A DNA stretch of 64,000 nucleotides from Fibrobacterota bacterium (GCA_023249635.1 JAHFCH010000011.1:671-64670); one strand, 5' to 3'; numbered from the stretch's first letter, positions 21,438 through 62,790 are shown. A program made the numbers and translations. Notes: generated from the sequence alone by a model not told the origin.

Positions 21438-22513
21438 AACCGGCCGCTGCCAAGCCGCCCTCCTTCGTCGTACATAATTCCAATTCCGAAATCGGCGGAG
21501 CCGAAGCCAGTCTGCTTGCGGCTGTGGCGGTAAACCTCGCGACCGTAGCCGATGCCCGACCGCTTTTCCTGGTACCCGCCGAAGGCGGCCTTTCCCGCGC
21601 CCTTACCGCGCGCGGCTGGGAGTTCCGCGTCCTGCCATGGCCTCGCGGCCTCGCAGCCCTGACCCAGCGGCGTTTGTGGTCGCTGCCCTTGGCTTTGCCG
21701 GGACTGTTGCCTTACCTGTGGCGCTTGCGGGGGGTTTTCCGGGATGCGGACTCCATCTGGTCCAGCGGCGTCAAAAGCCATTTCGCCTGCCTGCTGCTTT
21801 CGCCCTGGCTGCGCGGCCGGCTCCTCTTTGACGTGCGCGATTTCTTCCGCAACCGGCTCATCCGCCGCTCCCTGGCCTTCGCCTCCGCGCGCTTCGGCTG
21901 CCGTATCGCCGCCAACAGCCGGGCCGTGGCCGCGGATTATCCCGGCGCCGAGGTACGTTACCCGCAGGTTACGCTGCGACGTCCCGCCGTGGACCGCCGG
22001 GTTCCTTCTGGACGTCGCGTAATCGCCCACTTGGCCTACTTCGCCCCCTACAAGGGCCAGCATCTGTTCCTGGATTGCGCCCGGGCCCTGCTCGACGCGG
22101 GCGTGGACGCCGAATTCCTGATCATCGGGGACGTGATTTATCCCGCCGAGTCGTATGCGCGCTATCGCGAAGAGCTGTTCGCCCAGGTAGGCCGCTTGCG
22201 CCTTAACGAGCACGTGCGTTTCCTGGGGAAGCTGGATGGCCCGGAGGCGGTACAGGAGATACTGGAGCGGACCGATCTGCTGCTGCACTGCACCACCGAA
22301 CCCGAACCCTTCGGCCGCGCGGTGATGGAAGCCCTGCTATGCGGGTGCGCAGCGGTATGCCATGGGGGCAGCGGCGTGTGTGAGGTGACGGAAGCGGAGC
22401 GGGGATTCCCGGGGTGGATGGGACCGCTCGGGAAGGTGTTGGGGGAGGAGTACGTGAGGGTGCGGTTGAGTGACGATATCGTCGGGCGTCGGGCGTCGGG
22501 CGTCGGGCGTTAA
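21434..22513 (+). CDS. Glycosyltransferase family 1 (GT4-type); 3' end runs into a repeat element
   Basis: GTG start overlapping the upstream stop (GTGA); C-terminal GT1 core (EPFGRAVMEALLCGCAAVC); last ~12 codons (..VGRRASGVGR) are encoded by GTCGGGC heptads of the palindromic element. Confidence 0.6.
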   Translation: MKPAAAKPPSFVVHNSNSEIGGAEASLLAAVAVNLATVADARPLFLVPAEGGLSRALTARGWEFRVLPWPRGLAALTQRRLWSLPLALPGLLPYLWRLRGVFRDADSIWSSGVKSHFACLLLSPWLRGRLLFDVRDFFRNRLIRRSLAFASARFGCRIAANSRAVAADYPGAEVRYPQVTLRRPAVDRRVPSGRRVIAHLAYFAPYKGQHLFLDCARALLDAGVDAEFLIIGDVIYPAESYARYREELFAQVGRLRLNEHVRFLGKLDGPEAVQEILERTDLLLHCTTEPEPFGRAVMEALLCGCAAVCHGGSGVCEVTEAERGFPGWMGPLGKVLGEEYVRVRLSDDIVGRRASGVGR

Positions 22514-22599
22514 AACTGTGGATTGGTCCTTGTGCGGATTCCCGTTTTAACGCCCGACGCCTAGCCGCGCAGCGGCGTACGCCCGACGCCCGACGATAT
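22475..22599. repeat. MITE/REP-like palindromic element, GTCGGGC-heptad family, copy 1
   Basis: Perfect 20-bp terminal inverted repeats (GATATCGTCGGGCGTCGGGCG .. CGCCCGACGCCCGACGATAT); nested perfect 16-bp inverted repeat (CGTCGGGCGTTAAAAC/GTTTTAACGCCCGACG); extra small hairpin GCCGCgcaGCGGC; four tandem GTCGGGC heptads. Confidence 0.75.
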
Positions 22600-22632
22600 G
22601 CCTGAACGGGAATATCTCATTCCAGCACCGGA

Positions 22633-23832
22633 CTACTTGATAAAAGCTTTCTTAGCGGCTTTCCAGTTTCCCGCCGCCAACCCCAGCATGCGCGCATATC
22701 CCACCAGCTTGGACGGCAGGGAGAGATCCGCGTCCACCATATCCTTGAAGATTCGGTAGAAGGCGGTTTGCGTGGGCAGCGGCAGTTCCACCACGAAATC
22801 GCGGATGGACATTTGGCGGTGGTGGTGCTTGCCGAATTGTTCCCAACAATCCACCTGGTATTGCACGAGGAAGGAGCGGGAGAGGTCACCGTTGCGGAAG
22901 CCCGCGTCGATCCAGCGCGAGGCCAGTTCCCCGCCTAGGATACCGCTGATGATGCCGCCGCCGGTGAGGGGATTGGTATGGTGGGCCGCGTCCCCGCAGA
23001 GTACGAAGCGGTCGGCCACGAACTCGGTCAGGTTGCCGCTCACGGGAACCGCGCCGCCGTGCACTTCCACGACCTTGGCGTCCGGGAACAGTCGGTTCTT
23101 GTACTCCATGCTCAGGTCGTACATGTTCTTCTCGCCGAGCTTGGGCGTAAGCACGCCCGAACCCAGGTTCACCACCCCGGATTTGAGTTTGGGAAAAACC
23201 CACACGTATCCCTTGTTGATGGAATCGTGGCCCTGCCAGAAGGTGAGATGGTTCGGGTTGACGTCCATGGCATCGACGCGCAGTTCGATGGCGGAGCAGA
23301 CCTGGGGCGGAAGCTGGCGGGTCTTGAGCCCCACCCAGCGGCCGCTCAGGGCCTCGACCCCGTCGGCGCCGACCACGAGCCTGGCCGTGATGGTCGAGGC
23401 GGTTTTGCTGGCCTCGTCCACGATGGCGAGTTCGCGGACACCGTCCTTGACGGGAGAGATGCCTTCGATGCGGGTGTTGACGCAGAGTTCGGCGCCGGCG
23501 GCCTGGGCTTGCCGGGCCACGTCCTGATCGAACAGGCGCCGATCTATCATCAGCCCGATGTCTTCTTTATCGTACCGGATGCTGACGCCGCCCGGACCGT
23601 TGAGGATGACGCCGTTCAGATCGGTTTCGATGTAGGCTTCATTCACCTTCATGAAATTGGAAAGCCGCGAACGCCGGCCGGTGGCTTCTCCGCAGCGGAC
23701 GGGAACGCCCACTACGGGGCGCTTCTCGGCCAACAGTACATGGTAACCGCGGGCCGCCAGGTTGCGGGCGCACAGGCTACCCGAAGGTCCGGCGCCGATG
23801 ACGACCACGTCGTATGTGCGGGAGGCGGGCAA
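22633..23832 (-). CDS. Geranylgeranyl reductase family FAD-dependent oxidoreductase
   Basis: YDVVVIGAGPSG dinucleotide-binding motif near the N-terminus, then GGR-family sequence; putative TTG start at 23832 directly after the ferredoxin stop (the ORF-track N-terminal extension overlaps the ferredoxin gene). Confidence 0.65.
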   Translation of the reverse strand: MPASRTYDVVVIGAGPSGSLCARNLAARGYHVLLAEKRPVVGVPVRCGEATGRRSRLSNFMKVNEAYIETDLNGVILNGPGGVSIRYDKEDIGLMIDRRLFDQDVARQAQAAGAELCVNTRIEGISPVKDGVRELAIVDEASKTASTITARLVVGADGVEALSGRWVGLKTRQLPPQVCSAIELRVDAMDVNPNHLTFWQGHDSINKGYVWVFPKLKSGVVNLGSGVLTPKLGEKNMYDLSMEYKNRLFPDAKVVEVHGGAVPVSGNLTEFVADRFVLCGDAAHHTNPLTGGGIISGILGGELASRWIDAGFRNGDLSRSFLVQYQVDCWEQFGKHHHRQMSIRDFVVELPLPTQTAFYRIFKDMVDADLSLPSKLVGYARMLGLAAGNWKAAKKAFIK

Positions 23833-23843
23833 GGAGCGGGGAC

Positions 23844-24074
23844 CTAGGCGACGATGGGGGACGTAGGCGTCCCTTTGACGATGGAGAGCGCGCCCACGGG
23901 ACAAAAGCGGACGCAGATGGTGCAATACGTGCATTTGTCCTGGAATACCTGCAGGTCGACCCCGAACATATCCAACGCGAGATCCGGGCAGGTGCCGACG
24001 CATCCCGCGCAGGAGATGCAGGTCTCCCGATCGAGCAGCAAAGTCTTGTTGGGTTTTTTCGGTCCGGCGGACAT
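23844..24074 (-). CDS. 2x[4Fe-4S] ferredoxin
   Basis: Two CxxCxxCxxxCP motifs (CISCAGCVGTCP; CTYCTICVRFCP), 76 aa; immediately upstream of the reductase on the same strand. Confidence 0.7.
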   Translation of the reverse strand: MSAGPKKPNKTLLLDRETCISCAGCVGTCPDLALDMFGVDLQVFQDKCTYCTICVRFCPVGALSIVKGTPTSPIVA

Positions 24075-24256
24075 AAGCGAGGTCCAAATAGTACAAAATT
24101 GGGCCGCGCGGGCTTCGCGCGCGCGCCGTTTACCCTCGCCGCGGCCCCGTGGGCGCGGGTCGGAGTGGGGGATTTAGCTATATTTCCCCCGCTGCGCCCG
24201 GCACGGGCTTCCGGCGCAATCCCGAACGGATGCTACCCGAACAGATGGAACCACCG

Positions 24257-28109: not shown

Positions 28110-28116
28110 GGATTCC

Positions 28117-30271: not shown

Positions 30272-30363
30272 CCGGAATCCCGTCGTAACACGGCTGTTAC
30301 TCGGTTCCCGATTGGCGATGTAATCGTTGGCGCTTGTGGTTGATTGGTTATATTTCCCGTGCG

Positions 30364-32243: not shown

Positions 32244-32276
32244 GGATAATTAAGGCGTATATTCTGATGCCATCAT

Positions 32277-35440: not shown

Positions 35441-35469
35441 GCGGAACCTCCGGGGATTTGTCCGGGGAA

Positions 35470-35545
35470 AGGTTTAAGGTTTAAGGTGGGTGGGTCCCGT
35501 AGGCCCGGTCCAATTCAACCCCCTTAAACCTTAGACCTTAACCTA
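35470..35545. repeat. Palindromic element, GGTTTAA-heptad family, copy 1
   Basis: AGGTTTAAGGTTTAAGGTGGG ..30 nt.. CCCTTAAACCTTAGACCTTAACC; long imperfect hairpin between convergent polyprenyl synthase (+) and mltG (-); a near-identical family member sits at 54594-54681. Confidence 0.7.
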
Positions 35546-50669: not shown

Positions 50670-51613
50670 TTTTTGATCACCGAGGTAATCACGAACCAGG
50701 CCGTGAGGAACGTGACCATGTCGCGCATGATATCGAGGGTCTTGGTCCAAGTGACCACCTTGGCGTACATGATGATCATGTCGCCCTCTCCCAGCAGGGG
50801 CAGGTCTTCGGTCTTACCGTTGTCGATGAACTTCTGCATATCCAGCACGTAGTCGGCCTTTTGCCCGCCCAGCGCCGAGATGATGCGCACCTTGTGCATG
50901 TTGGCGTCCGGGGCCGGCCCGCCGGCCAGGTAGAGCATGTCGAATACGGAAGCCTGTTCGCCCACGGGGTAGAACCCGGGCTTGCTGACCGCCCCGAGGA
51001 TTTTCACGTACTTGGATTTCTTGGAGGAGAGCAGAATGATGCGATCGCCATCGTACAAGGTCGGCAACAGCGTCAGGTCGCCCGAGCTCAGGAACTTCTG
51101 CAAGTCGTAGTAGCTGGCGTTCTCGTCGCCCTGGTTCTTACGCACGATCTTGACGCGCTGCAGGTCCGCGGTCTCGAGGCTGCCGCCGGCGGCCAGCATT
51201 ACTTCCTGCAGGCTGGCCTTGGGGGGCATCATCAGTACGCCGGGTTTCTTGACCTGGCCCAGCACGTAAAGGGAAATGGGATTCTCGGTCAATACGCTCA
51301 CCAGCACCATCGGCGACTCCACCACTTTGGCGAGTTTGTAGGTGAGGATGTCTTGCAACTCGCTGGTGGTCTTGTCGACCACGGGTACGTCCTGGTAGAG
51401 CGGGTAATCGATGGTGCCGTTATCGTTCACGCGCACGATCTGGGAAAGCTCTTTGTCGTTCTTCACCACGATGTTCAAGGTCATCCCGGATTTGATCACG
51501 GTCGCGGCGCAAGGCGAACTCAAAATGAAAAGTGAAAACTGAAAAATGAAGACGGAAAGGAATGCGAATCCTGTCCCGATGGCGGTTTGCACTTTGAAAT
51601 TTTCACTTTTCAT
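50666..51613 (-). CDS. wza: Polysaccharide export outer-membrane protein (Wza-like)
   Basis: Signal peptide, Poly_export-like region (..TLNIVVKNDKELSQIVRVNDNGTIDYPL..), two SLBB-like segments; ATGA overlap with wzc. Confidence 0.75.
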   Translation of the reverse strand: MKSENFKVQTAIGTGFAFLSVFIFQFSLFILSSPCAATVIKSGMTLNIVVKNDKELSQIVRVNDNGTIDYPLYQDVPVVDKTTSELQDILTYKLAKVVESPMVLVSVLTENPISLYVLGQVKKPGVLMMPPKASLQEVMLAAGGSLETADLQRVKIVRKNQGDENASYYDLQKFLSSGDLTLLPTLYDGDRIILLSSKKSKYVKILGAVSKPGFYPVGEQASVFDMLYLAGGPAPDANMHKVRIISALGGQKADYVLDMQKFIDNGKTEDLPLLGEGDMIIMYAKVVTWTKTLDIMRDMVTFLTAWFVITSVIKK

Positions 51614-51628
51614 TTTTCACTCTAGGCT
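51518..51628. repeat. AT-rich palindromic element, GTGAAAA-heptad family, copy 1 (spans wza start codon and signal-peptide codons)
   Basis: Left arm AAAATGAAAAGTGAAAACTGAAAAATGAAGA (encodes FIFQFSLFIL on the minus strand); right arm TTTCACTTTTCATTTTTCACTC (contains the wza ATG); 17+ bp of complementarity between arms. Confidence 0.7.
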
Positions 51629-51667
51629 TTGTGGGCTATCCGATTATACTCCCTGGATCGCTTTCGC

Positions 51668-52717
51668 CTAGGCCGGCTTGAATATGAAAGGCGATTTCAT
51701 CTCCACCGGACCTCCCGAAGAAGGCGGGAATATCCAACGTTTGATGCGACGTAAAAGCTCGGCGGTGAAATCCGGATCATCCAACGTGGTTTCCGAACGC
51801 AGTATGGATACGTTGGAAACGGTGCCATCCTCTTCGATAACTATCAATACGGATACCTTGCCCTCCAAAGCCGGATTGGATTTGAGACGTTCTTCATAGA
51901 GCATACTGACCATGGATTGTTTTTTCGAAATAAAGGCCGCGACTTCGCCCGGGCTCCGGTTTCCCGTGAATTTGGCCGACTTGTCGGTGGCGGTGGGGCG
52001 TTCCGTATCGGTCACCCCGATCTTGCCTCCCACGGCCGATTTCGCGTTCTGGAAGCCGTGGACCATGTTTTCGATGCCGCTGGTGCTGCCCACCGCTTCG
52101 CCTTTCATTACGGTTCCCTTGGGCGATCCTTCCCGGTTGAAATCGCCCTTTTTGCCGTCGAATTTCGTCAAGCCCTCGATGCTTCCCAGGCGAGCGTCGA
52201 GATCACCGAAGCCCGCGAAACGATCATGTCCGCCGCCCGGTCCCGCTTTGCCTACGGTCCTGCCGATGGCGCCCGGGCCTTTTCCGGAGAGGATGGAGAG
52301 TACGGCCGCCTTGGTGATGCGTTCCTGCACCTGGGTTATCTGCTGGGTCACGGTAGCGCGCGAACGCTCTATGCGTGCGAGGGCCGAAGCCTCCCCTTTG
52401 CCCGCGCCCGGAGCGGGACGCGCCTGGCCGGTCGAGCCCTTGGGGGCCGTCGGCTTGGGGATGGCCTTCCCCGGGGGCTTGAGCGGCATGATGATCTTGG
52501 AGACGCGATCGGAAAGATCTTCCAGGGTCGGCTTCTCGAGCTTGCTGTAGTCCACGTTGCGTATGCCCACCAGCACCATCATGAACAGCATCAGGCACGC
52601 CACGAAACTGGTAATGGCCGGAACGTCGATGTTGTCGAACATCCCGCCTTTGTAGCCGGGATTGCGATCTTCCGGCGGCCGGGGCTTGGGCGTTTCCTGT
52701 ACGGGGCTATTCGACAT
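51668..52717 (-). CDS. tonB: TonB-family energy transducer
   Basis: N-terminal TM, Pro/Lys/Gly-rich spacer, C-terminal TonB domain (GKVSVLIVIEEDGTVSNVSILRSE..). Confidence 0.7.
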   Translation of the reverse strand: MSNSPVQETPKPRPPEDRNPGYKGGMFDNIDVPAITSFVACLMLFMMVLVGIRNVDYSKLEKPTLEDLSDRVSKIIMPLKPPGKAIPKPTAPKGSTGQARPAPGAGKGEASALARIERSRATVTQQITQVQERITKAAVLSILSGKGPGAIGRTVGKAGPGGGHDRFAGFGDLDARLGSIEGLTKFDGKKGDFNREGSPKGTVMKGEAVGSTSGIENMVHGFQNAKSAVGGKIGVTDTERPTATDKSAKFTGNRSPGEVAAFISKKQSMVSMLYEERLKSNPALEGKVSVLIVIEEDGTVSNVSILRSETTLDDPDFTAELLRRIKRWIFPPSSGGPVEMKSPFIFKPA

Positions 52718-53198
52718 CGCGCTTCATCACCGCTAAGGAAAAACTGCTGTAGCCGTTATCGCCGCAGGTGGCGAGTACCTTCTGTAAAAGCCAGTAGGGG
52801 ATGAGGTGATCGCCCTGGATGGTCAGCTTGCCGTTGAACTCGACGCTCTTGTCGTACTCGGCGATATCCTCGGTCTGCTTACGCTTGTCCTCCAGGAACC
52901 GCGCCAGGCCCGGGATGTCGTTACCGGGCCTTTCCTGCTCCTCGGTGACGAGCGCCACGGGATTGCCTTCCACCATGATGTGTTTGGTGCTGATGGAAAT
53001 GTTGAGGGTGTTCTCCGGCTTGATCTTGGAAGTACTCATGGGCAGTTCCAGATTCTTGGTCTGGGTGACTATCTCGCCCTCGGAGGAAAAATTCTTGAGT
53101 AGGAAGAACACCAGGCAGATGAGCACGTCCACCAGGGACGTCATCGCCGGCTTGGCCGATTCCGTCGGCTGCCTACGGCGCTTGCGCCCGGTCTTCAT
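52707..53198 (-). CDS. exbD: Biopolymer transport protein ExbD/TolR
   Basis: Single N-terminal TM (SLVDVLICLVFFLL) then ExbD-like periplasmic domain. Confidence 0.75.
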   Translation of the reverse strand: MKTGRKRRRQPTESAKPAMTSLVDVLICLVFFLLKNFSSEGEIVTQTKNLELPMSTSKIKPENTLNISISTKHIMVEGNPVALVTEEQERPGNDIPGLARFLEDKRKQTEDIAEYDKSVEFNGKLTIQGDHLIPYWLLQKVLATCGDNGYSSFSLAVMKRDVE

Positions 53199-53731
53199 TG
53201 GTACACGCCTCCGGACAACAGGATGTTCGGGAACCTCTGCTCGCGCATCACGTCCATGGTGGTGATGATGTCCTGGTACACCACGGCGGAGTCTATCAAG
53301 AGCACCACGTCTTCGGCGCTGGGATATTCCTCCTTGAGCTTCTTCATGAACTGCCCCAGCCGCGGGTAATCGAAATCCTTCGTTCCTTTGGGAATGGGAT
53401 CGAGTTTGCGTCCCTCGCCGATCACCTGGAACCCGTTCTCGGAAACCAGCACCGTGATATCGACGCTCGGGGCCTTTTCGGTCGAATCGGCGGCCGCCTT
53501 GGCCTGGTCCTCGCCGCCGCCGCCGCTTTGGGGCGGCAGGTTGAATTTGATCACCGCCAATTGCGTGAACACCACCATGGTCACCAGGAACGAGATGAGG
53601 ATGATGAGCATGTTCATCATCGGCGTCATGTCCAGATCGATGGGCGCGCCCATGGCGGACCCGCCTTTGGACGCGATGCCTCCGCGTTGTTTACCGCCTC
53701 CGGGGGCGGGACCGGCAACCGAACCGCTCAT
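53195..53731 (-). CDS. exbD: Biopolymer transport protein ExbD/TolR (second paralogue)
   Basis: IDLDMTPMMNMLIILISFLV TM then ExbD-like domain; 4-nt overlaps at both ends. Confidence 0.7.
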   Translation of the reverse strand: MSGSVAGPAPGGGKQRGGIASKGGSAMGAPIDLDMTPMMNMLIILISFLVTMVVFTQLAVIKFNLPPQSGGGGEDQAKAAADSTEKAPSVDITVLVSENGFQVIGEGRKLDPIPKGTKDFDYPRLGQFMKKLKEEYPSAEDVVLLIDSAVVYQDIITTMDVMREQRFPNILLSGGVYQ

Positions 53732-54429
53732 CCAGCATGCCCGGTCGCGGCGGGACCGGCCGGAGCCGCGCCAGGCGGGGCTTTCGGGCTGGTCTTGCGT
53801 TGGGCATTCATGAAATTCACCAGCCGGAGCACGGTCTCATCGATTTGTTCCAGCAACTGGTTCGATTTCGATCCCAGCCAGGTGAAGGAAGCCATGCAGA
53901 TCATGGCGGCGATGAGCCCGAGCGCCGTGGCGTTCAGCGCTAAGGTGATACCGCGCGCCAGTAGTTTGCTTTTCTGGGAGGGGTCGGCGGCTTCGAGCGC
54001 GGCAAAGGCTTCCTGCAGGCCGAAAATGGTTCCGAGCAGTCCTACCAGGGTGCAAAGGTTGGCGAGCAGTCCCAGGTAATGGGTGCGTTTCTGCAAGCGT
54101 GGGACTTCCCGCAGCGACACTTCTTCCAGGGCATCCTTGATTTCTTCCGCGGTGGCGGCCTGCTCGTATTTCCAGATGCCCGCTTCCAGGATCAGGCCAA
54201 GGGGGGTGCCGGTCTGATTGCACAGCTTGCGGGCGTCGGCGATCTTATCCTTGCGGATCAAGGCCGTGGTGTCGGCCAGCAGCTTCTTGGAATTGATCCG
54301 GCATTTGATGAAGAAGAACCAGATCCGTTCGAGCATTATGGAGAGCCCCAGCCCCAAAAGGCCGAGAATCATGTACTCCACGGCCCCGCCCTCGTCGACG
54401 AATTTGGCAATTTTCATCAGGATTTCCAT
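53728..54429 (-). CDS. exbB: MotA/TolQ/ExbB proton-channel protein
   Basis: Three TMs with the conserved C-terminal channel region (..GLLGTIFGLQEAFAAL..TALGLIAAMICM..); ATG 54429 chosen. Confidence 0.75.
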   Translation of the reverse strand: MEILMKIAKFVDEGGAVEYMILGLLGLGLSIMLERIWFFFIKCRINSKKLLADTTALIRKDKIADARKLCNQTGTPLGLILEAGIWKYEQAATAEEIKDALEEVSLREVPRLQKRTHYLGLLANLCTLVGLLGTIFGLQEAFAALEAADPSQKSKLLARGITLALNATALGLIAAMICMASFTWLGSKSNQLLEQIDETVLRLVNFMNAQRKTSPKAPPGAAPAGPAATGHAG

Positions 54430-54593
54430 AAAACCTCTGGCTTTCAAAAAGGGACAGGTCGGCATTGGGATTATCGTATTCCTGGGGATTTGGAAGCAAC
54501 GGAGCGGGTGGGTGAACTCGGGGTAGGCCGGGAACTTACGGTTGGTTGACCCGCGGAAGCGCCAGGGGAAGGGGGGAGGCTGCCCCAGGGAAT

Positions 54594-54681
54594 GGGTTTA
54601 AGGTCTAAGGTTTAAGGTGGGGGAATTCAACGCCGTGAACATTCCCCTTAAACCTTTAACCTTAAACCTTAAACCTTCTTC
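54594..54681. repeat. Palindromic element, GGTTTAA-heptad family, copy 2
   Basis: GGTTTAAGGTCTAAGGTTTAAGGTGGGGG - 20 nt - CCCCTTAAACCTTTAACCTTAAACCTTAAACC; upstream of exbB and of the divergent gene starting 54817. Confidence 0.7.
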
Positions 54682-54816
54682 AATCCCCGGTTTTCCCCTG
54701 TTTTCCCACAAATTTCCTCCTTTTCCAGCCCCGGTTCCCTTGTGCAAACAGCCCCTTCGCGGTATATTGCTTACTTATACGGACACGGTTTCCCCAACCG
54801 GTTTAAGGAAGGATTT

Positions 54817-55275
54817 ATGAAGAAGACCATCGCGTTCCTGTTCCTCGCTTTCGCATCGGTCACCCTCGCGGGGTCTAAGACTGAAATGACCAACGTTACC
54901 CGTATCAAGTCGGGCGGCGCCACCATCTACAAGACCGAAGCCGGGGATGAATCGGACAAGGTCGCGGACGCCGGCACCGGCGATGAGGTCACTCTACTGA
55001 AACAGGGCAAAGGCCGTTCGCTGATCAAGACCTCCGGCTCCATCAAGGGCTGGGTCGACAACAGCACCATCGAAAAGGTGAAGATTTCCAGCGGCGGTAC
55101 CCATAACCTGAAAGACGTGGAAGTCGTGGGCTGGCTGGACAATCCTTCCGCTGTCTACATTTTGGACAATTCCAATCCGGATTTGAACGCGCTGCCCATC
55201 GATCGCAATTTCAACAATGAAATCATCGAGAAAAAGGACCGCGAAGAGGTCGAACGCACGTACGACGAAAACTGA
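54817..55275 (+). CDS. Hypothetical secreted protein (SH3b-like beta domain?)
   Basis: AAGGAAGGA RBS; signal peptide MKKTIAFLFLAFASVTLAGS; lower GC than flanks; domain guess weak. Confidence 0.45.
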   Translation: MKKTIAFLFLAFASVTLAGSKTEMTNVTRIKSGGATIYKTEAGDESDKVADAGTGDEVTLLKQGKGRSLIKTSGSIKGWVDNSTIEKVKISSGGTHNLKDVEVVGWLDNPSAVYILDNSNPDLNALPIDRNFNNEIIEKKDREEVERTYDEN

Positions 55276-55368
55276 GTATATTCTAATTATACAGAAGCGG
55301 CCGGGCTGGACCCGGCTCCGCTGAAGGGAAGGGCCTCCAAGGAGGTCCTTTTTCTTTGGGGGTGGTTT

Positions 55369-56364
55369 TTACCAACCTTGCTTGCGTATGCTCGTCTCGC
55401 CAATCAATTCGCGCATCCCTTTCTTCAGCTCTTTTAAGCCGTCGCCCGTGAGGGCGGAGGTGCGTAGAATGGGGCAGCCTTCCTTCTTGAAGCGCTTGTC
55501 GATCTTGAACTCGCCCAAGTCGCATTTGTTCATGGCGATCAGCTTCGGCTTCTGCAGCAATAGGGGATGGAACTTCTCCATCTCGGCGCGTAACACCTTG
55601 TATTGGCCGTACGGATCCTCGCCGCTCGCGTCAATGATATAGGCCAGGCAGAAGCTCCGCTCGATGTGGCGCAGGAACCGGTGGCCCAGGCCTTTGCCTT
55701 CGGCAGCGCCTTCGATGAGACCGGGGATGTCCACCAGTACGAAGCTTTGCCCGGGCGCGACTTCGACCAGGCCCAGGATGGGCTTCAGAGTGGTGAAAGG
55801 ATAATCGGCGACCTTGGGCGTGGCCGCGGAAAGCTTGCGGATGAGCGAGCTTTTTCCCGCGTTGGGGAAGCCCACCAGGCCGCAGTCCGCCACCAGCTTA
55901 AGCTCGAGCAGCAGTTTGCGCGATTCACCGGGATCGCCCGGGGTGGATTGCCGCGGCGCGCGATTGGTGCTGCTTTTGAAGGCGGCATTGCCGACTCCGC
56001 CACGGCCGCCTTGCGCCACGGTGTAGCGTTGGCCGGCCTCTTTCAGGTCGGACAGCAGTTCTCCCGTGGCGAGATCCTTCACCAGCGTTCCCACCGGAAC
56101 CGTAATCTCAATGTCCTTACCATTACGGCCGGTACACAGAGAGGGTTCTCCCGGACCGCCCGCATCGGCGCGGAATATGCGTTTGTTCCCGATATCGTAA
56201 AGGGTATGTATTTCGGTGGTGGCGACCACCACGACATGGCCTCCCCGGCCGCCGTTTCCGCCGCTGGGTCCCCCGAGGGGAACGAATTTTTCCCGACGGA
56301 AGCTGACCATGCCTTTTCCGCCGTGGCCCGCGTGAACTTCCAGCTTGGATTCATCAATGAACAT
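55369..56364 (-). CDS. obg: GTPase Obg/CgtA
   Basis: Obg fold N-terminus (MFIDESKLEVHAGHGGKGMVSFRREKFVPLGGPSGGNGGRGG), G1 GFPNAGKSS, G3 DIPG, G4 NKCD. Confidence 0.85.
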   Translation of the reverse strand: MFIDESKLEVHAGHGGKGMVSFRREKFVPLGGPSGGNGGRGGHVVVVATTEIHTLYDIGNKRIFRADAGGPGEPSLCTGRNGKDIEITVPVGTLVKDLATGELLSDLKEAGQRYTVAQGGRGGVGNAAFKSSTNRAPRQSTPGDPGESRKLLLELKLVADCGLVGFPNAGKSSLIRKLSAATPKVADYPFTTLKPILGLVEVAPGQSFVLVDIPGLIEGAAEGKGLGHRFLRHIERSFCLAYIIDASGEDPYGQYKVLRAEMEKFHPLLLQKPKLIAMNKCDLGEFKIDKRFKKEGCPILRTSALTGDGLKELKKGMRELIGETSIRKQGW

Positions 56365-56844
56365 GCGCGTAAATGTACTAAACGCCGTATTCGCAAAGCG
56401 TATGCCACCCGCTCCCCAAGCCCGGTTCCGCGGGGCTTACGGGGAGGGGTTGTGGGAATCGCGTAGTGTAGCCCAGGGAGGCGGAAAGGCAGCGCGCCGC
56501 AGGGTTTGTGTTTTTTACGGCGTAAGAGCGGGGGTCAGTTACGTCGATGGCCTTCTAGGCCAAGCAGGCATGCGCCATGATTCCGTAACCACACGTCCAT
56601 CGTATCCTTTCCATCCCGTCGGAACCGCGGACTGAGTCATCAGTCACTGGTTCCATCCGTGCAAGCGATTGACAATTTCCGCCGCACGGGCGAGGCGCGG
56701 ATCCACCCTTCCACGCACTGAGTGTGCGCGTTATTCGCGTCTCCAGGATCTTGAGAGGTTTGATACCCGTTGTTAACTTGATCGCATTCATGGCGCCCGG
56801 ACGCATTCCGGCAGGGAACACACCAAAATAGGGAGTTGCCAAGA

Positions 56845-57096
56845 ATGTCCAAGAAAAGATTCGTTACGACCGGTGAGATAGCGAAGATCTGCGAAGTCAG
56901 CCCCAAGACGGTGATCGCATGGATCGAGCGCAAACAACTGCGCTCCTTCCGCATCGGCCGGGGTCCCCGCAAGGTTACCCTCGCTGATCTGTATGACTTC
57001 CTCGGTTCGAGGAACTTCCCGATCGCTTCGCTGGAAGAACTGACGCGCATGCTCGAAGAACAGGCTAACCGCGAAGAGCTGGTTCCCGCGGTCTGA
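56845..57096 (+). CDS. Excisionase-family helix-turn-helix DNA-binding protein
   Basis: GGGAG RBS 9 nt upstream; MSKKRFVTTGEIAKICEVSPKTVIAWIERKQLRSFRIGRGPRKV matches the excisionase/MerR-like HTH pattern. Confidence 0.6.
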   Translation: MSKKRFVTTGEIAKICEVSPKTVIAWIERKQLRSFRIGRGPRKVTLADLYDFLGSRNFPIASLEELTRMLEEQANREELVPAV

Positions 57097-57150
57097 CCCG
57101 ATGGGAGTCGGGGGTGACGACCGGCGCAATGCCGGTCCACGGACACATCC

Positions 57151-58596
57151 CTAGCTCTTACGTGCCAACCCCGAGCCGCCTTTACGGTCCGCGCCTTCGC
57201 CGCCTAACCGCAGTTCCTTCCCGTTAATCCCCAGCTTCTTCATTTTGTTATGGAGTGCTGTGCGGGTTATTTCCATGACCTTTGCGGCTTCGGACACGCT
57301 CCAGCCGCAGTTTTGCAGGCGCGCGAGCACGAAATCCCTCTCGATTTTCCGTAGATGCCCCTTGAGGGTAGGGTATGTCTGCGTGTCCAGCGCTACCACC
57401 AAAGCTTGCCCGTTCGGCGCGGTTGCCGATTTGAGATAGGCCTCCACTTCGGACCGGCTGATCAGCGGGCCCTTGGCGAAGGAAATGCCGCGCTGAATGA
57501 TGTTCTCCAGCTCGCGGATATTCCCCGGAAAGGAATAGCCCGAAAGCAGTTCCATGGCGTCGTCGCCCAGGCCTACCTTGGCCGCGTGGCGCTTTTGGTG
57601 TTTGGCCAGGAAATGCCGTACCAGTTGCGGTACGTCCGCGATGCGCGCGCGCAAGGGCGGCAGCCCGATGGGTATGACATTGAGCCGGTAGTACAGGTCC
57701 TCGCGGAAATGTCCCGACTTGATGGCCTCTTCCAGGTTGCGGTTGGTGGCCGCGATCACGCGCACGTTCACGTGCCGCACCTTGTTCTCACCCACGCGGC
57801 GGAACTCGCCTTCCTGCAGGATGCGCAGCAGCTTGGTCTGGCTGCGTAAAGGGATATCGCCGATCTCGTCCAGGAAAATGGTGCCGTTATCCGCCACCTC
57901 GAACAAACCTTCGCGATCGCCGACCGCGCCCGAGAAGGCGCCCTTGGCATGGCCGAACAATTCGCTCTCGATCAGGCCTTCGGAGATGGCGCAGCAATTG
58001 ACGATCACGAAACCATGCGCGGCGGCGTTGGCTTCGGCGCTGTAGATGGCGCGCGCCACCAATTCCTTGCCCGTGCCGCTTTCCCCGCGGATGAGCACGT
58101 GGCCTTTGGAATGCCGGGCCTTATCGATGAGCCGGAACACCTCCTGCATCGGCTCCGACGCGCCGATGATGTTCTGCGCGGCGTAGCCCTCGGCGCCCAG
58201 CTTGGCCAGGGGTCCGGTCTTGGCGCGCGTGCTCTTCTCGAAGGTCTTCCCGAGCGCCGCGTGCAACTGATCGGGATTGACCGGCTTGAGTAGGTAGTCG
58301 TCCGCGCCGATGGTTTGGGCCTTGCGGGCCACGTCGTAGGAGCCATGCGCGGTGAGGATGAAGACGGGCAGATCGGGCTGCAGTTGCTTGACCCGGCGGA
58401 CAAGCGCGAAGCCGTCGATGCCGGGCATCACCAGGTCGGTGATGATAAGGCTGAATTTGCGGCGCCCCAATTGCTCCAGGGCCTCTTCGCCATTCTGGGC
58501 CAGATGCACGTCGTAGCCGGCCGCCGTGAGGATATCCTTCAGGTAGAAGGCGGTGATCTTCTCGTCGTCGACGATGAGGATGGAGAGGTTATCCAT
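57151..58596 (-). CDS. Sigma-54-dependent response regulator (NtrC/Fis family enhancer-binding protein)
   Basis: Receiver (DDEKI.., D in IITDLVMPGIDG), AAA+ sigma-54 interaction domain (GESGTGKE, GAFSGA), C-terminal Fis-type HTH. Confidence 0.85.
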   Translation of the reverse strand: MDNLSILIVDDEKITAFYLKDILTAAGYDVHLAQNGEEALEQLGRRKFSLIITDLVMPGIDGFALVRRVKQLQPDLPVFILTAHGSYDVARKAQTIGADDYLLKPVNPDQLHAALGKTFEKSTRAKTGPLAKLGAEGYAAQNIIGASEPMQEVFRLIDKARHSKGHVLIRGESGTGKELVARAIYSAEANAAAHGFVIVNCCAISEGLIESELFGHAKGAFSGAVGDREGLFEVADNGTIFLDEIGDIPLRSQTKLLRILQEGEFRRVGENKVRHVNVRVIAATNRNLEEAIKSGHFREDLYYRLNVIPIGLPPLRARIADVPQLVRHFLAKHQKRHAAKVGLGDDAMELLSGYSFPGNIRELENIIQRGISFAKGPLISRSEVEAYLKSATAPNGQALVVALDTQTYPTLKGHLRKIERDFVLARLQNCGWSVSEAAKVMEITRTALHNKMKKLGINGKELRLGGEGADRKGGSGLARKS

Positions 58597-60856
58597 GGGA
58601 TTGCCAGCTCTTCACCAACTCGGCGTAAATCTTCGGGTAGGTATTCAGCAGGTCCTTTTCGAAAGCCGCCATTCCCGTGCGCGGCTTGATGGTAAGCCGC
58701 GTCCCGTTGGGCAGGGCCACCTGGCGATTGAGGTTCTCACCGAACTTGCGCAGGATGGCGGGCACGGTCTCCAGGGTGGTCATGGGCAGAACCACGAGGA
58801 AACGATTGAAGGCCAGGTAGCCCACGAAATCGGACTCGCGCAGGAAGCGCCGCATGTCGCCGATGAGCACGTTCTGCAGGCCGCGCAGGGCATCGCCATG
58901 GGTATCGAAACCGGCCTTGTCCTCGGGCAGGCCTTGGAACGAGACCAGCAGGGCGCTGAAGGGAAGCTGGTAGCGCAGGGCCCGGCTGATTTCCGATTTG
59001 ATGAAGAAGTCGAGCACCGCTTTTACGTACACGCCTGCGGGTAATTCCTTGGAGGCGGCCTTTTCGCGGCGGGCCAGCATTTCCTGGCGCACTTTCTGCA
59101 TTACCTGGCTGCCGGCCTCTTTCGCGAGAGACTCCGGATCGAGACCTTCCCGGGCCCGTCCCAGGGTCTCGTCCATTTCCTTCTCGTCGCTGAACATCTC
59201 CAGCAGGAATTGGATCTTTTCCGCCTCGCTTACGCCTGTGTCCCGCATTTGCGCCATGGCGGCGCGTCCCTTGAGGTCGGTCACGGAACGTTGCATGCGC
59301 AGGCGGAGCTTCTGCTGGCCCATGGCCCGCAATTCCTCGGGCATGCCCTTATCCTGCAGCTTCTGGTTTACCTCCGCTTCCATCTGGTGCAACATGGTGC
59401 TCAGCTTGGCCGCTTCCCTGGGATTGGCGTCGATGCGCTCGCCCGCGGCCTCGCCGGCCTTCTCCACGAAATCGGCCAGGGAATTGATCATGTCCTCGGC
59501 CGAGCCCTCGCGATTCGACTTGCGGGCCTCGCTGGCGAGCACGATCAATTGGGCCGCTTGGCGCGGGTTCTCTTGCAATTCGCGCAGCAGCTCTTCCTGG
59601 CTTATGCCCAGGCTTTGCCCGGCCTGCAAGAACTCCTGATAGCTCTGGTCGGTGCCCAGCAGGGTATTCAGTTCGGCGAGCAGGTTGAAGAATTCGATCA
59701 AGGGCACGCCCTGCTTCAGCAACTCGGCCCGGAACAGGTTTAGCACCCGCTGCAGATGGGCGCGATCGGGCACGATGCGCTGCACCACCTGGGCCATACG
59801 CTTGGGATTGCCCTTGCACTTGCGGTACTCCTCCATCACCAGTTGCGCCGCCGTCTGGGTGAAGATATCGTCGGCGGCTTCGGCGAGGCGGCCGGCTTCG
59901 GCTACCTTGGCGGGATCGGGACGCGTCAGGGTGGGCAATCCCGATTCGGTGAGCTTGCCCGCGTTACCGCCTCCGCCCAGGTGCTGGGCAAGTCCCTGCT
60001 GGGCCTTCACGGCTTTCAGCAATTCGGATCGCATGCTGTACATGCCGGCCAGCAAATCCTCGATGGGCACATTGCCGGTGCCCGCTTCGGCGCGGAAGGC
60101 GCCCACCACGTTCAACAGGCTTTGCTTCAGGGACTGGGCCTCTTGCCCGGGGTTGGCCACCGTGTTCTTGAGGATGGCGTCCGGCAGGGCGGAAGGGCTT
60201 TCCAGCACCTTGAGCAGGCTCAGGTTGGCGTTCATTTCCTGCGCGGTGAGATGCCCCAATACCACGCGCATGGCCGCGTCATCAAAGGCGCTGTTGGCGC
60301 GGCGCAGTTCCCCGGAAAAAGTGCCTCCTGGGCCCGGGCCTCCGCCATCGGGCGAACCAGTTGGCCTGGGGCCGCCCGCCGGGTGGCTTCCACCTGCCGT
60401 GACGACTTCGTCGCCGGACTTTACCGTCTGCAGGCTTACGTTGTTCACGTTGAAACAGGTGATGCTCTGATTGGTCAGGTAAGCCAGGAAGCGCGCGGGA
60501 TCGGCATGGGTCATGCTGCAGGCGTCCAGAAAGCGGGCGAGCGCGCCCATGGAAACGGGCTGCGAGAAGGTGATGGACTCGATCCCGAAGCGGCGCAGGT
60601 GGTCGGCGATCTTCCGGTTGTTGGGCGCATACACCAGATCGACATGGCCGATGTAATACCCGAATTCCTGGAAGAGGATCGAAAGGGAAGCATCCTGGCC
60701 CAGGCATTTCGCGAAGGCTTCGTAAACGCGGGGAATGGTCTCTTGCGCGACGGGATGATCGAAAGCGTAGGCGACGGTGCGCTGGTAAAACAGATTTAGC
60801 AGCCGAACCAGGTTCTCGGCGTCGATACGGGAAAAGGCCTTGGTGTCCTGGTTCAT
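58589..60856 (-). CDS. Large signalling protein with C-terminal degenerate GGDEF domain (GGDEF replaced by AFNRF; I-site RESD retained)
   Basis: C-terminal approx 150 aa align to the diguanylate cyclase fold (..LLVSF..THGDALRGLQNVL..RESDFVGYLAFNRFLVVLP..); N-terminal 600 aa helical, no family recognised; 8-nt overlap with the sigma-54 regulator gene. Confidence 0.55.
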   Translation of the reverse strand: MNQDTKAFSRIDAENLVRLLNLFYQRTVAYAFDHPVAQETIPRVYEAFAKCLGQDASLSILFQEFGYYIGHVDLVYAPNNRKIADHLRRFGIESITFSQPVSMGALARFLDACSMTHADPARFLAYLTNQSITCFNVNNVSLQTVKSGDEVVTAGGSHPAGGPRPTGSPDGGGPGPGGTFSGELRRANSAFDDAAMRVVLGHLTAQEMNANLSLLKVLESPSALPDAILKNTVANPGQEAQSLKQSLLNVVGAFRAEAGTGNVPIEDLLAGMYSMRSELLKAVKAQQGLAQHLGGGGNAGKLTESGLPTLTRPDPAKVAEAGRLAEAADDIFTQTAAQLVMEEYRKCKGNPKRMAQVVQRIVPDRAHLQRVLNLFRAELLKQGVPLIEFFNLLAELNTLLGTDQSYQEFLQAGQSLGISQEELLRELQENPRQAAQLIVLASEARKSNREGSAEDMINSLADFVEKAGEAAGERIDANPREAAKLSTMLHQMEAEVNQKLQDKGMPEELRAMGQQKLRLRMQRSVTDLKGRAAMAQMRDTGVSEAEKIQFLLEMFSDEKEMDETLGRAREGLDPESLAKEAGSQVMQKVRQEMLARREKAASKELPAGVYVKAVLDFFIKSEISRALRYQLPFSALLVSFQGLPEDKAGFDTHGDALRGLQNVLIGDMRRFLRESDFVGYLAFNRFLVVLPMTTLETVPAILRKFGENLNRQVALPNGTRLTIKPRTGMAAFEKDLLNTYPKIYAELVKSWQSHG

Positions 60857-60945
60857 GGGATTCCGATATTTTAGCCTTTTATCGGTGAAGCTGCCACCTG
60901 ACGGGCACTTAGCTAGGGACGGGGCCCCCGGGGCAAATGCTATAA

Positions 60946-61878
60946 TTGGCCGCGATGGCCATCCCCGCCGCTTTACCCGATTTGACCGGCCAAACCCTGG
61001 GCACGGTTACCCTGCTCCAGAAGATCGGCGAAGGCAGCATGGGCGTGGTATACCGGGGTTTCCAGAACACCTTGAGCCGTCCCGTGGCGGTAAAGGTGGT
61101 CTTCCGCAACCGCCTCAACAAGCTTTTCACCTCGGAACGCTTCCGCCAAGAAGCCGAGGTGGTCGCCAACCTGTTGCATTCCAACATCGTGACCATTTTC
61201 GAATTCGGCGAGCAGCCCGACTTCATGTACTTCATCATGCAGTTGGTGGAGGGAGTCAACCTTTCGGCCTGGCTCAAGCAAAAGAAAAAGCACCCTTTGC
61301 CCCGCAAGCGCGTGCCCTCCATGGACGAATTGCTGCGGCTGGCGGAGCAGGTCCTTGAGGTACTGGCTTTCGCCCATGCCGAAGGCGTCATCCACCGGGA
61401 CATCAAGCCCGAGAACCTGCTCTGGATCGAAAAGAGCAGGAAGGTCTTGGTGGCCGATTTCGGCCTCGCGGCGGTGTACCATACCGTCTACGACGAAGAG
61501 AAGGCGTTTATCCTGGGGTCCCCGCTATACGTCTCGCCGGAGCAGGCCCGCGGGGAAACCGTGGACGGCCGGGCCGATCTCTTCTCCTTCGGCTGCGTGC
61601 TGTTGGAAATGACCCTGGGTTTCCTGCCCGTAAAGGTGGAGCGCCCGGAACGCATTTTCCAGACCCGGGCCAAGGAAAGCCCCGATATGTTCACCGGCAT
61701 GGCCCATGACCATAGCCCCGCCGTTCCCCGTCCCTGGAGCGATTTCGTGGCCAAGGCGTTGGTGGCGAAGCGGGACCAGCGGTATGCGGGAGCAGAGCAG
61801 ATGCTGACGGCACTGCGGAATATCGCGCCTGGGCTGCGGGCCGGCGACAAGGAGGATACGGGACAAGCTACGGCATAA
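60946..61878 (+). CDS. Hanks-type serine/threonine protein kinase (kinase domain only)
   Basis: IGEGSMGVVY Gly loop, VAVKVV Lys, HRDIKPENLL catalytic loop, DFGLA, SPE motif (YVSPEQ). Confidence 0.8.
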   Translation: MAAMAIPAALPDLTGQTLGTVTLLQKIGEGSMGVVYRGFQNTLSRPVAVKVVFRNRLNKLFTSERFRQEAEVVANLLHSNIVTIFEFGEQPDFMYFIMQLVEGVNLSAWLKQKKKHPLPRKRVPSMDELLRLAEQVLEVLAFAHAEGVIHRDIKPENLLWIEKSRKVLVADFGLAAVYHTVYDEEKAFILGSPLYVSPEQARGETVDGRADLFSFGCVLLEMTLGFLPVKVERPERIFQTRAKESPDMFTGMAHDHSPAVPRPWSDFVAKALVAKRDQRYAGAEQMLTALRNIAPGLRAGDKEDTGQATA

Positions 61879-61903
61879 AACGAGCCCGCGTTGGTTCGAG
61901 CGG

Positions 61904-62030
61904 CATATCGTCGGGCGTCGGGCGTACGGGGCGAAGCGCCCCTAAGCGTCGGGCGTAAATGCGAAAATGCTCCCATTTTCTTGCATTTACGCCCGACGCC
62001 GAACGCCCGACGCCAAACGATGCGCTGCTA
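61904..62030. repeat. MITE/REP-like palindromic element, GTCGGGC-heptad family, copy 2 (inverted orientation, more degenerate)
   Basis: CATATCGTCGGGCGTCGGGCG .. GGGGCGaagCGCCCC .. CGTCGGGCGTAAATGC / GCATTTACGCCCGACG .. CGCCCGACGCCAAACGATG; same terminal 20-mer as copy 1 on the left, degenerate on the right. Confidence 0.7.
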
Positions 62031-62117
62031 CCGACACCGTAGTGTCCAGTTCGCATCCAACCCTCTCGTACAATTTTTATCTTTGTCCCACCACCATCGA
62101 TCAGGGGATCCCCTCAC

Positions 62118-62639
62118 ATGACCCAAGAGGCCACCGGCGCCGGCAAAGACGATATGCTCGAAAGCATGCTCAAAGGCCTTCGCGAGGATGAAATCGGGGT
62201 GCTGGATCGGTTTACCGACTACCAGAAATCCACCGCTCCCTTTTTCGAAAAGGTCGAAGTCGCCCACGAGTTCCTGGATCTGCTCACCTTCAAGATCAAG
62301 GAGAGCAAGTCGAAGATGAACAAGGAACTGCTCGCGCAGTTCTCCCTGGCCTTCCTCCGCCAGACCGTCCGCACCTACGGCTACAATCCCAAGTTCGTCG
62401 CCACCCAGGCCAAGGCCCTCATCACCTATTACCAGAACCAGAAGAACCTGGAGAGGGCCATCGAGGTTTGCGAATTCCTGATCCTACAGGGCATCACCGA
62501 TGACGATGCCAAGGGATTCCACGTCCGTCTCGACGAGTTGTACCGCCTCAAGCGGAAGATCGAGGAAAAGGGCGGGGATATTTCGGGGATCAGCTTTCCG
62601 ACCATGGATGATGATGAGTCGGATGATTCTGAAGAGTGA
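62118..62639 (+). CDS. Hypothetical protein with acidic C-terminal tail
   Basis: CAGGGGA RBS; 173 aa; ends DDDESDDSEE; followed by a perfect 7-bp hairpin GCAGAACtaagagtGTTCTGC. Confidence 0.45.
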   Translation: MTQEATGAGKDDMLESMLKGLREDEIGVLDRFTDYQKSTAPFFEKVEVAHEFLDLLTFKIKESKSKMNKELLAQFSLAFLRQTVRTYGYNPKFVATQAKALITYYQNQKNLERAIEVCEFLILQGITDDDAKGFHVRLDELYRLKRKIEEKGGDISGISFPTMDDDESDDSEE

Positions 62640-62663
62640 GGCAGAACTAAGAGTTGTTCTGCC

Positions 62664-62790
62664 AGGGCTAAAAGTGAAAAAGGAAAAGTGAAAAATTAAA
62701 AAATCAAATTTTTGTATGTCGCTGGCGGGTTAGGGTCCGCCCTCCCGGTTTTTCACTTTCCATTTTTCACTTTGATTTTTTAGCCCCAGC
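62664..62790. repeat. AT-rich palindromic element, GTGAAAA-heptad family, copy 2
   Basis: CTAAAAGTGAAAAAGGAAAAGTGAAAAATT .. GC-rich centre (GGCGGGttagggtCCGCC) .. TTTTTCACTTTCCATTTTTCACTTTG; the right arm is 22/24 identical to the wza-overlapping copy. Confidence 0.7.

Follow-up and report, generated by a model that had tools for sequence, protein, structure and literature searches.

The 64,000-nucleotide (nt) stretch of a Fibrobacterota bacterium analysed here (GCA_023249635.1 JAHFCH010000011.1:671-64670; hereafter the window, with positions counted from its first letter) carries six palindromic elements of 70-135 nt, E1 to E6, two in each of three families built on the unrelated heptanucleotides (heptads) GTCGGGC, GGTTTAA and a GTGAAAA-like, A-rich unit. 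On balance, we read the six loci as three families of non-autonomous hairpin elements resembling repetitive extragenic palindromes (REPs) and MITEs (miniature inverted-repeat transposable elements), recently gained, whose stems were shaped by slippage in 7-nt steps and whose arms were kept complementary. An earlier sequence-only reading of the same DNA had proposed the six loci and the three families, and all were found in their places. The data examined were the window and contig fragments of related, uncultured organisms.

Such repeats have been on record since the short tandemly repeated repetitive (STRR) sequences of 1990, and a survey of 2007 showed heptanucleotides to be the commonest class of long simple repeats. 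What is new here is that three unrelated heptad families each take palindromic form, with defined termini and a side hairpin, in a phylum without earlier description in the literature searched. Since one genome presents the same hairpin architecture in one GC-rich heptad capable of forming a G-quadruplex (G4) and in two AT-rich ones, the periodicity can be separated from the sequence. The empty sites of relatives, together with one orthologous element in which the heptad has been replaced in concert, offer material for measuring the birth, mirroring and movement of arrays.

Hairpin anatomy and the period of seven

In each element, one arm is made up of 2-4.7 head-to-tail heptads and the opposite arm is their reverse complement, with 2.4-4.7 copies counted in each arm by Tandem Repeats Finder (TRF) and autocorrelation; the stems measure 20-45 bp, and a non-heptad core of 23-70 nt separates the arms. 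TRF returned period-7 arrays at all six loci, and the eleven longest inverted repeats given by a repeat finder all fall within the elements. Each element is predicted to fold into a long hairpin (-34 to -97 kcal/mol; z -3 to -12 against shuffles). The arms consist of heptads in direct array and lack self-complementarity; the heptads occupy the outer and middle stem of the elements, not the hairpin tips. The earlier description of the arms as 2-4 tandem heptads was right in outline, with two amendments: the units are imperfect, those of the A-rich family alternating between variants to give an apparent 14-mer, and one arm of both E1 and E2 is broken by a small GC-rich side hairpin. The elements have the features of heptanucleotide tandem repeats (a 7-nt unit in at least 2-3 head-to-tail copies, mainly intergenic), and all six have the arrangement of the Xanthomonas-type inverted pair, in which arrays of one heptad lie close together on the two strands and converge. 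Units of the A-rich family are variants of AAAGTGA, AAAATGA and AAAAAGG. The individual elements are as follows.

22476-22599: E1, GTCGGGC family, between the convergent GT1 gene (+) and FAD/GGR oxidoreductase gene (-). Layout ATATC-(GTCGGGC)4-GTTAAAAC, a 27-nt loop, GTTTTAAC-GCCCGAC-GCC, side hairpin, (GCCCGAC)2-GATAT. RNA fold -94.9 (+) and -95.6 (-) kcal/mol, z about -11.7.
22562-22579: side hairpin of E1, inside the right arm, TA-GCCGC-GCA-GCGGC-GTA.
35469-35541: E3, GGTTTAA family, between the convergent polyprenyl synthase (+) and YceG (-) genes. Layout (AAGGTTT)2.7-AGGTGGG, core with AATTCAAC, CCCC-(TTAAACC/TTAGACC)3. Fold -43.9 kcal/mol, z -4.8.
51522-51621 (-): E5, A-rich family (AAAATGA/AAAGTGA/AAACTGA), inside the 5' end of the Poly_export/SLBB gene at 50666-51613 (-). 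Fold of the mRNA strand -33.6 kcal/mol, z -4.2.
54594-54677: E4, GGTTTAA family, in the divergent region between the ExbB/MotA gene (-) and a 152-aa gene (+). Layout GGGTTTA-AGGTCTA-AGGTTTA-AGGTGGGG, core with AATTCAAC, CCCC-(TTAAACC)4.6. Fold -44 kcal/mol on both strands, z -6.5.
About 61902-62021: E2, GTCGGGC family, between a Ser/Thr kinase gene and a 173-aa gene, both (+). Layout GGCATATC-(GTCGGGC)2-GTAC, side hairpin, TAAGC-GTCGGGC-GTAAATGC, loop, GCATTTAC-GCCCGAC-GCCGAAC-GCCCGAC-GCCAAAC-GAT. Fold -97.1 kcal/mol, z -11.7.
61928-61942: side hairpin of E2, GGGGCG-AAG-CGCCCC, which includes GCGAAGC.
62665-62786: E6, A-rich family, between the convergent 173-aa gene (+) and methionine aminopeptidase gene (-). 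Layout GGGCT-(AAAAGTG/AAAAAGG)4.7, core, (TTTTCAC/TTTCCAT), TTTTAGCCC. Fold -46 to -51 kcal/mol, z -4.8 to -7.1.

Long inverted repeats were sought with a scan blind to tandem repeats (arms of at least 18 nt, complementarity of at least 85%), followed by autocorrelation of the arms; a detector requiring two exact heptads per arm in both arms misses most elements. Self-similarity peaked at a shift of seven in all 12 arms (0.46-0.92), the best score for any other period being 0.70 (period 8, left arm of E6). The window holds seven such loci, whereas 60 dinucleotide-preserving shuffles averaged 0.32 and never exceeded 3. Six of the loci are the heptad elements; the remaining one, at 5344-5382, is a plain hairpin next to tRNA-Cys. 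Control DNA, comprising 1.28 Mb of loci around Obg homologues about 50% identical (Proteobacteria and others), yielded 40 long inverted repeats with a flat distribution of best arm period and six at period 7; at this control rate of 15%, six out of seven has P ~7e-5. In the relatives, the sole long inverted repeats found by the repeat-blind scan (contigs L083 and L090) also have period 7. Period-7 arrays of at least three copies had an inverted partner within 250 nt in 5/5 cases in the window and relatives, 11/62 at metagenome loci and 4/10 in the controls, against about 1% expected by chance. The suggestion that a common 7-nt period is unlikely by chance is thus borne out, and the period reflects a process that is independent of sequence. 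The shared mechanism suggested along with it holds to that extent, although we read it as the known slippage bias of heptanucleotides.

Since two families lack G-tracts, G4 formation is not the common cause, and a reading of the elements as G4-forming repeats of the Xanthomonas or Nostoc kind, unified by that property, is extremely improbable. In its favour, (CGTCGGG)4 of E1 matches G3N4G3N4G3N4G3, and many metagenome heptads read NNNCGGG, including AATCGGG, equivalent to GGGAATC. However, tracts of at least three G fit the GTCGGGC family only (E1, and E2 with long loops), and arms of the GGTTTAA and GTGAAAA types, which lack G-tracts, show no difference in period or architecture. E3 to E6 refute a G4 as the unifying cause, which could hold for the GTCGGGC family alone.

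Two ENA contigs that were assembled independently carry E2 and E6 without a single base change, and the four positions at which L002 differs all lie outside the elements. The elements are not assembly artefacts because of this identity; similar elements in isolate genomes also rule this out.

Descent of copies and empty sites in relatives

E1, read on the (-) strand, can be aligned with E2 (+) across the whole element, side hairpin included. Their common plan comprises GGCATATC, (GTCGGGC)2, GTAC, the GC-rich side hairpin, TA(A/G)GC and GTCGGGC, followed by an AT-rich apical stem of 8 bp, a loop, then 3-4 GCCCGAC units and finally CGAT; the side hairpins stand at the same position between the same flanks (GTAC...TA). 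In this comparison of two sequences, with the structure derived from one of them, 89% of the 57 pairs of the E2 fold are paired in both copies, with six double changes, five of them in the apical helix, and pairing falls to 35-45% when the partners are shifted by 1-3 columns. E3 and E4 have in common the AGGTGGG...CCCC junctions, the core motif AATTCAAC, the GGTCTAA variant and similar flanks. Shared ends, junctions, variant heptads and side hairpin therefore mark the elements as dispersed copies rather than six independent inventions, those within a family having spread as copies. In a soil metagenome (L126, 1143-1334), a GTCGGGC palindrome holds a small hairpin, GTAAAATGC-GAAGAG-GCATTTTAC, that nearly matches the apical stem of E2 (GTAAATGC...GCATTTAC), but about 100 nt of other sequence comes next.

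Eight syntenic contigs provided the related loci (173-aa protein 68-90% identical, QueA 70-76%), and the sites orthologous to E1, E2, E3, E4 and E6 are empty in all relatives tested. The spacer at the E1 position measures -14 to 12 nt, and that at E3 7-16 nt (L136, L135). At the E2 position, the genes either overlap or are separated by 66-132 nt of unrelated sequence, with the element absent in L083, L089, L090 and L091, and the region orthologous to E4 shows no palindrome. The E6 spacer is 15-44 nt long in L085, L087, L090 and L091 and about 23 nt, from the gene table only, in the P0005 contig; that of L089 reaches about 308 nt, yet is without such an element. The six elements are thus lineage-specific gains in this Fibrobacterota lineage. 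Despite 86-90% protein identity, the intergenic DNA of the relatives is too diverged for the insertion edges to be resolved to a single base. Conversely, L083 (6345-6500) and L090 (4406-4537) carry heptad palindromes at one shared site directly 5' of the start of a sigma-54 response-regulator gene, where two genes overlap in the window. L083 also has an additional PG_binding/CHAP peptidoglycan hydrolase gene (10569-11321) between the 173-aa gene and map, at the position of E6 in the window.

These comparisons make an origin in place quite unlikely. A local hairpin would, under such a scheme, have gained adjoining heptad arrays by slippage and mirrored them by template switching, and the likeness of copies would be due to convergence or gene conversion. 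Arrays do turn over in situ (L108/L125 and L094/L127, see below), the heptads of L083 and L090 have diverged at one site, and neither a transposase nor a target-site duplication was found. However, E1 and E2, 39 kb apart and in opposite orientation, have about 120 nt of architecture in common that includes the non-heptad ends and the position of the side hairpin, E3 and E4 share non-heptad junctions and flanks, and the insertions sit in spacers whose length in relatives is just 7-16 nt.

We call the elements mobile solely because of the similarity of copies and their presence or absence among relatives, as no mobilising enzyme was found. Pfam scans revealed no transposase, integrase or Y1/HUH domain among the approximately 60 open reading frames (ORFs) of the window, and the gene tables of the relatives (about 150 genes, about 130 kb) list no transposase, HUH or RAYT (PF01797) protein. 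A REP unit is an imperfect palindrome of 20-40 nt that folds into a stem-loop, with a stem of at least 8-9 bp, a short loop and an unpaired GTAG/CGTC tag at one end; two such units make up a REPIN, and the repeats typically flank a RAYT gene (PMC3733652, PMC3116915). The elements resemble REPs, REPINs and BIMEs (bacterial interspersed mosaic elements) by being dispersed extragenic palindromes some 100 nt long that often separate convergent or co-directional genes, with several families per genome, some copies within genes and presumed non-autonomous mobility. They differ from REPs and REPINs in that the arms are direct heptad arrays that do not fold on themselves, that the unpaired tag is missing (the CGTC of CGTCGGG is paired in the stem) and that no RAYT was seen in the window or the relatives' loci. 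As for MITEs, inverted termini are present, but no direct duplication was visible by eye in the flanks and no insertion sequence or transposase was seen.

It is unlikely that the heptads serve as recognition modules of a protein which senses the geometry of the hairpin, or reads one 7-nt unit after another, and thereby generates or moves the elements, or regulates through them. The candidates would be a RAYT/HUH or other hairpin-specific transposase, or an OB-fold protein of the cold-shock type binding one heptamer per monomer on single-stranded DNA or RNA. One period and one architecture common to three unrelated sequences speak for such a protein, as does the dispersal of copies within the genome; CspB has been reported to bind heptamer repeats, one protein per heptamer, and REP doublets likewise form hairpins of about 100 nt. 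Given the absence of Y1, HUH and transposase domains from the window ORFs and the relatives' gene tables, and arms that are not self-folding REP units, the RAYT/HUH candidate of the sequence-only reading finds no support. A closed stem would keep the heptads double-stranded and out of reach of single-strand binders, and a sequence-specific binder can account neither for the more than 20 different heptads nor for the drift from AAAGTGC to AAATTGR at one site.

Turnover of the heptad arrays

L083 and L090 have elements with one core junction in common, AAATGGGGA, which keeps phase with the heptads; their units are AAAGTGC and AAATTGR, respectively. Anchored on this junction, 35 stem pairs could be compared: 17 are unchanged, nine have changed on both sides with pairing kept, one has changed on one side and eight are broken in one element. 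The difference is a concerted replacement of units in both arms. Between two metagenome contigs that are 97% identical (L108 and L125), a (CCAGGCA)n array differs by exactly one heptad, while in a pair that is 86% identical (L094 and L127) the arrays differ in length and variants with the frame GANNCCC fixed. Slipped-strand expansion of heptads at hairpin tips had been among the mechanisms first suggested; the one-heptad indel agrees with slippage, whereas the tips are not where the heptads lie.

Further arrays were found at metagenome loci (n = 43), which are matches to a scan seeded with ATCGTCGGGCGTCGGGCGT. Beside the seeded matches, the arrays contain more than 20 other heptad sequences and are often mosaic (e.g., L111), and 62 of the 105 arrays of at least three copies have period 7, compared with two of period 8. 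Many heptads in L094, L095, L103, L106, L109, L120 and L127 fit the frame NNNCGGG, with CGT-, AAT-, TTT-, ATT-, TAT-, ACT-, TAA-, AGA-, CGA-, AGT- and GGT-CGGG as variants, of which AATCGGG is the Xanthomonas GGGAATC unit; in L094, the three variable positions drift stepwise along one array. Soil and sediment metagenome contigs (L111, 3840-4060; L096, 1-2341) contain mosaics in which as many as six different heptad arrays abut, as well as arrays reaching 19 copies. One end of contig L084 falls within a heptad array.

Nor is the phenomenon peculiar to this window: heptad arrays also occur in unrelated bacteria and phages and belong to a known excess of heptanucleotide repeats. Among five hairpin arms of strong periodicity in the control DNA, three have period 7, namely palindromes of Alloalcanivorax gelatiniphagus MEBiC 08158 (L059, (AGTTGAA)n), Dokdonella (L035, GGGAATC type) and a betaproteobacterial metagenome-assembled genome (MAG; L012), the other two having periods of 9 or 12 nt. 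The unit (AAGGTTT)n was found in 29 viral contigs of 23-64% G+C, mostly as direct arrays, which shows its ubiquity and no link to the window elements. Among these, L155, L157, L160 and L165, some of them giant-virus MAGs, have direct arrays of 6 to more than 17 copies, that of L160 at the contig end; AAGGTTT is one base different from the plant telomere unit TTTAGGG.

Nostoc is reported by Elhai et al. (in 2008) to carry small dispersed repeats (SDRs), hairpin inserts of 21-27 nt that are linked to tandem heptameric repeats, nested, and variably present at orthologous loci. In the window, by contrast, the heptads make up the stem themselves, and the likeness of the E1/E2 side hairpin to an SDR insert is a lead only. 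STRR sequences are also said, in work attributed to Vioque in 1997, to lengthen helix P12 of the RNase P RNA in heterocystous cyanobacteria, which would be a use as a hairpin. Such cyanobacterial heptamers have been recorded since 1990 (Mazel et al., 1990, cited in PMC4679880, PMC4692102). As summarised in later papers, heptanucleotides are the most abundant class of long simple sequence repeats (LSSRs) in most prokaryotic genomes, and the suggested cause is that 7 nt is the stretch contacting the polymerase, which favours slippage (Mrazek, 2007, summarised in PMC4679880, PMC4692102). The window elements share with LSSR and STRR sequences the 7-nt unit, several unrelated heptads per genome, an intergenic bias and perhaps, judging by the metagenome pair L108/L125, copy-number change of the slippage type; those are mainly direct arrays, with few inverted pairs in Nostoc, whereas here every array is the arm of a palindrome.

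The closest parallel comes from Xanthomonas, whose genomes hold about 185 GGGAATC arrays, with 70-75 of them as inverted pairs that can form stem-loops (Rehm et al., 2015, PMC4692102). Their length varies among species while the pair type is kept, and 83% of the Xcc sites are common to Xac (PMC4692102). Both systems consist of intergenic tandem heptads, mostly as convergent inverted pairs able to form stem-loops. However, Xanthomonas has one G-rich, G4-capable family per genome, while this member of another phylum, the Fibrobacterota, has three unrelated families within 40 kb, of which two are AT-rich and incapable of forming a G4; its elements have defined non-heptad ends, cores and a side hairpin, and are missing at the orthologous sites of relatives. 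TAACTGA repeats are known from marine Beggiatoaceae, Cyanobacteria and Bacteroidetes; those of Beggiatoaceae form 169 direct sets against a single indirect one, and Csp, S1 and CsrA have been proposed as binders (MacGregor, 2015, PMC4679880). These are likewise short intergenic arrays (2-6 copies), often next to start codons, a position with which E5 and the L083/L090 elements may be compared, but they involve a single heptad sequence and no hairpin architecture has been described for them.

The mechanism is best read as the 7-nt slippage bias because exact 7-nt steps separate strains and because many heptad sequences occur in unrelated bacteria and phages. From the anatomy, the period-7 excess, the gain and loss among relatives, the descent within families, the 7-nt indels and the compensatory arm changes, we infer a scheme in which small non-autonomous hairpin elements would have spread within this lineage. 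Their stems would consist of tandem heptads for the reason that bacterial arrays expand, contract and homogenise preferentially in 7-nt steps, a bias that has been ascribed to how long a stretch of DNA the replicative polymerase holds. A change in one arm would persist only when mirrored in the other, whether through selection for the hairpin or through template switching within it (quasi-palindrome correction), and the outcome would be a mirror-symmetric stem with its period fixed and its sequence free. Once inserted, the elements would form very stable stem-loops in single-stranded DNA or RNA at gene ends, where their likeliest effect would be as a barrier to transcription or exonucleases; otherwise, they may be tolerated passengers.

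Several observations weigh against this slippage-shaped, mobile origin. Neither the window nor the relatives' loci yielded a mobilising enzyme, a target-site duplication or a parent element, only two copies per family are at hand, and within the window's own lineage L001 and L002 are identical, with no polymorphism in array copy number. The compensatory changes do not distinguish selection from copy-correction. Palindromes with a 9-nt period, of CACAGAGNN units, occur in a Bordetella-labelled MAG (L073, 2447-2520) and a Rhodocyclaceae MAG (L049, 16411-16498), and tandem-unit hairpin stems are therefore not confined to period 7. A simple consensus scan for intrinsic terminators (GC-rich stem and U-tract) that covered 50000-64000, and so E2, E4, E5 and E6 with E1 and E3 outside its range, called none at these four elements. 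Finally, slippage alone leaves the preference for 7 over 6 or 8 without explanation. A more speculative proposal, to which we give little credence, is that heptad-stem hairpins form a distinct class of mobile element set by periodicity and geometry and not by sequence, with machinery that measures 7 nt while building or spreading them. Candidates for such machinery would be a nuclease or transposase that processes hairpins, and a polymerase or primase adding or copying 7-nt units across a fold-back; if the proposal is right, it would explain the long-known excess of heptanucleotides in many bacteria and phages.

Gene contexts and possible roles

The gene map, built from Pfam scans and gene tables, places E1, E3 and E6 at convergent gene ends, E2 in a co-directional spacer, E4 in a divergent promoter region, with a promoter-like stretch conserved in L083 downstream of it, and E5 at a gene 5' end. 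Locations are mostly intergenic. The claim that copies sit at gene ends or boundaries and never in the middle of a gene stands for E2, E3, E4 and E6, which are fully intergenic; it needs qualifying for E1, the left arm of which is read by the GT1 ORF, and for E5, which lies within the 5' end of its gene. Rather than adjoining a start codon, as first described, E5 spans the first ~30 codons.

The insertions have remodelled genes, giving a polysaccharide exporter a new start codon and putative signal peptide and a glycosyltransferase a new C-terminal tail. In E5, the A-rich arm supplies the ATG of the Wza-like Poly_export protein together with its N-terminal residues, and the putative signal peptide has its hydrophobic core (VFIFQFSLFIL) encoded in the T-rich arm, so that the start codon and the entire putative signal peptide (MKSENFKVQTAIGTGFAFLSVFIFQFSLFILSSPCAA) come from E5; orthologues in L085 and L087 have shorter, unrelated signal peptides. 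Phase variation was considered here, as a 7-nt step would change the frame, and rejected: slippage is unlikely because the three heptads of E5 all differ. The GT1 ORF (21368-22513, +) meets no stop ahead of E1 and passes through four GTCGGGC units to end in the tail ...VGRRASGVGR*, while the homologue of relatives stops 12 nt short of its convergent neighbour or overlaps it.

A role as terminator, RNA stabiliser or exonuclease barrier is plausible from these positions and the predicted folds. It is unlikely, however, that the elements are in essence selected cis-acting RNA structures, i.e., bidirectional terminators, stabilisers of mRNA 3' ends, RNase III sites or, over the Poly_export start, a translational hairpin, with the heptad period as a by-product. 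Three of the six occupy the exact junction of convergent genes which almost abut in relatives, very stable hairpins are predicted on the transcribed strands, compensatory changes were found, E5 encloses a start codon, and such roles have been proposed for REPs. Against this, the same sites in relatives do without elements, the contexts are heterogeneous and include the divergent promoter region of E4, and similarity within families indicates spread rather than independent selection. The mixed contexts and the terminator scan also lend no support to the earlier idea of selection as terminators, and by that consensus canonical terminators are improbable at E2, E4, E5 and E6, although the T-rich arms of E5 and E6 could serve as U-tracts. 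The stems far exceed the typical length of an intrinsic terminator. Across the whole window only tRNA-Cys reached the Rfam gathering threshold, and permissive scans over E1, E2 and E6 gave only far-sub-threshold look-alikes of miRNA hairpins; a known RNA family was thus rejected. Integron attC sites were rejected as well, since GTTAAAAC and GTTTTAAC of E1 resemble core sites only loosely, E2 differs and there is no integrase.

The genes of the window are of ordinary housekeeping and envelope types and include those for TamB, an Omp85-family protein, a TolB-like PD40 beta-propeller protein, an Opp (oligopeptide-type) ABC transporter, QueA and HemE, as well as many glycosyltransferases, Wzx, Wzc and Wza-like exporters, ExbBD-TonB, Obg, the sigma-54 response regulator, the Ser/Thr kinase and Map. 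A separate repeat array lies at 8030-8198, between a TPR gene and the TolB-like PD40 gene, and has a 60-nt unit repeated three times in tandem; every copy comprises a nested hairpin, GCGGCGAGCG-TGGAGTTGC-GAA-GCAACTCCA-TAGCGAAGCCGCC, and a spacer. With a fold of -91 kcal/mol (z -5.8), it represents a different repeat family that is not composed of tandem heptads. Its unit holds GCGAAGC twice; the window contains 31 matches to this motif against 19 expected, six of the 31 in this array.

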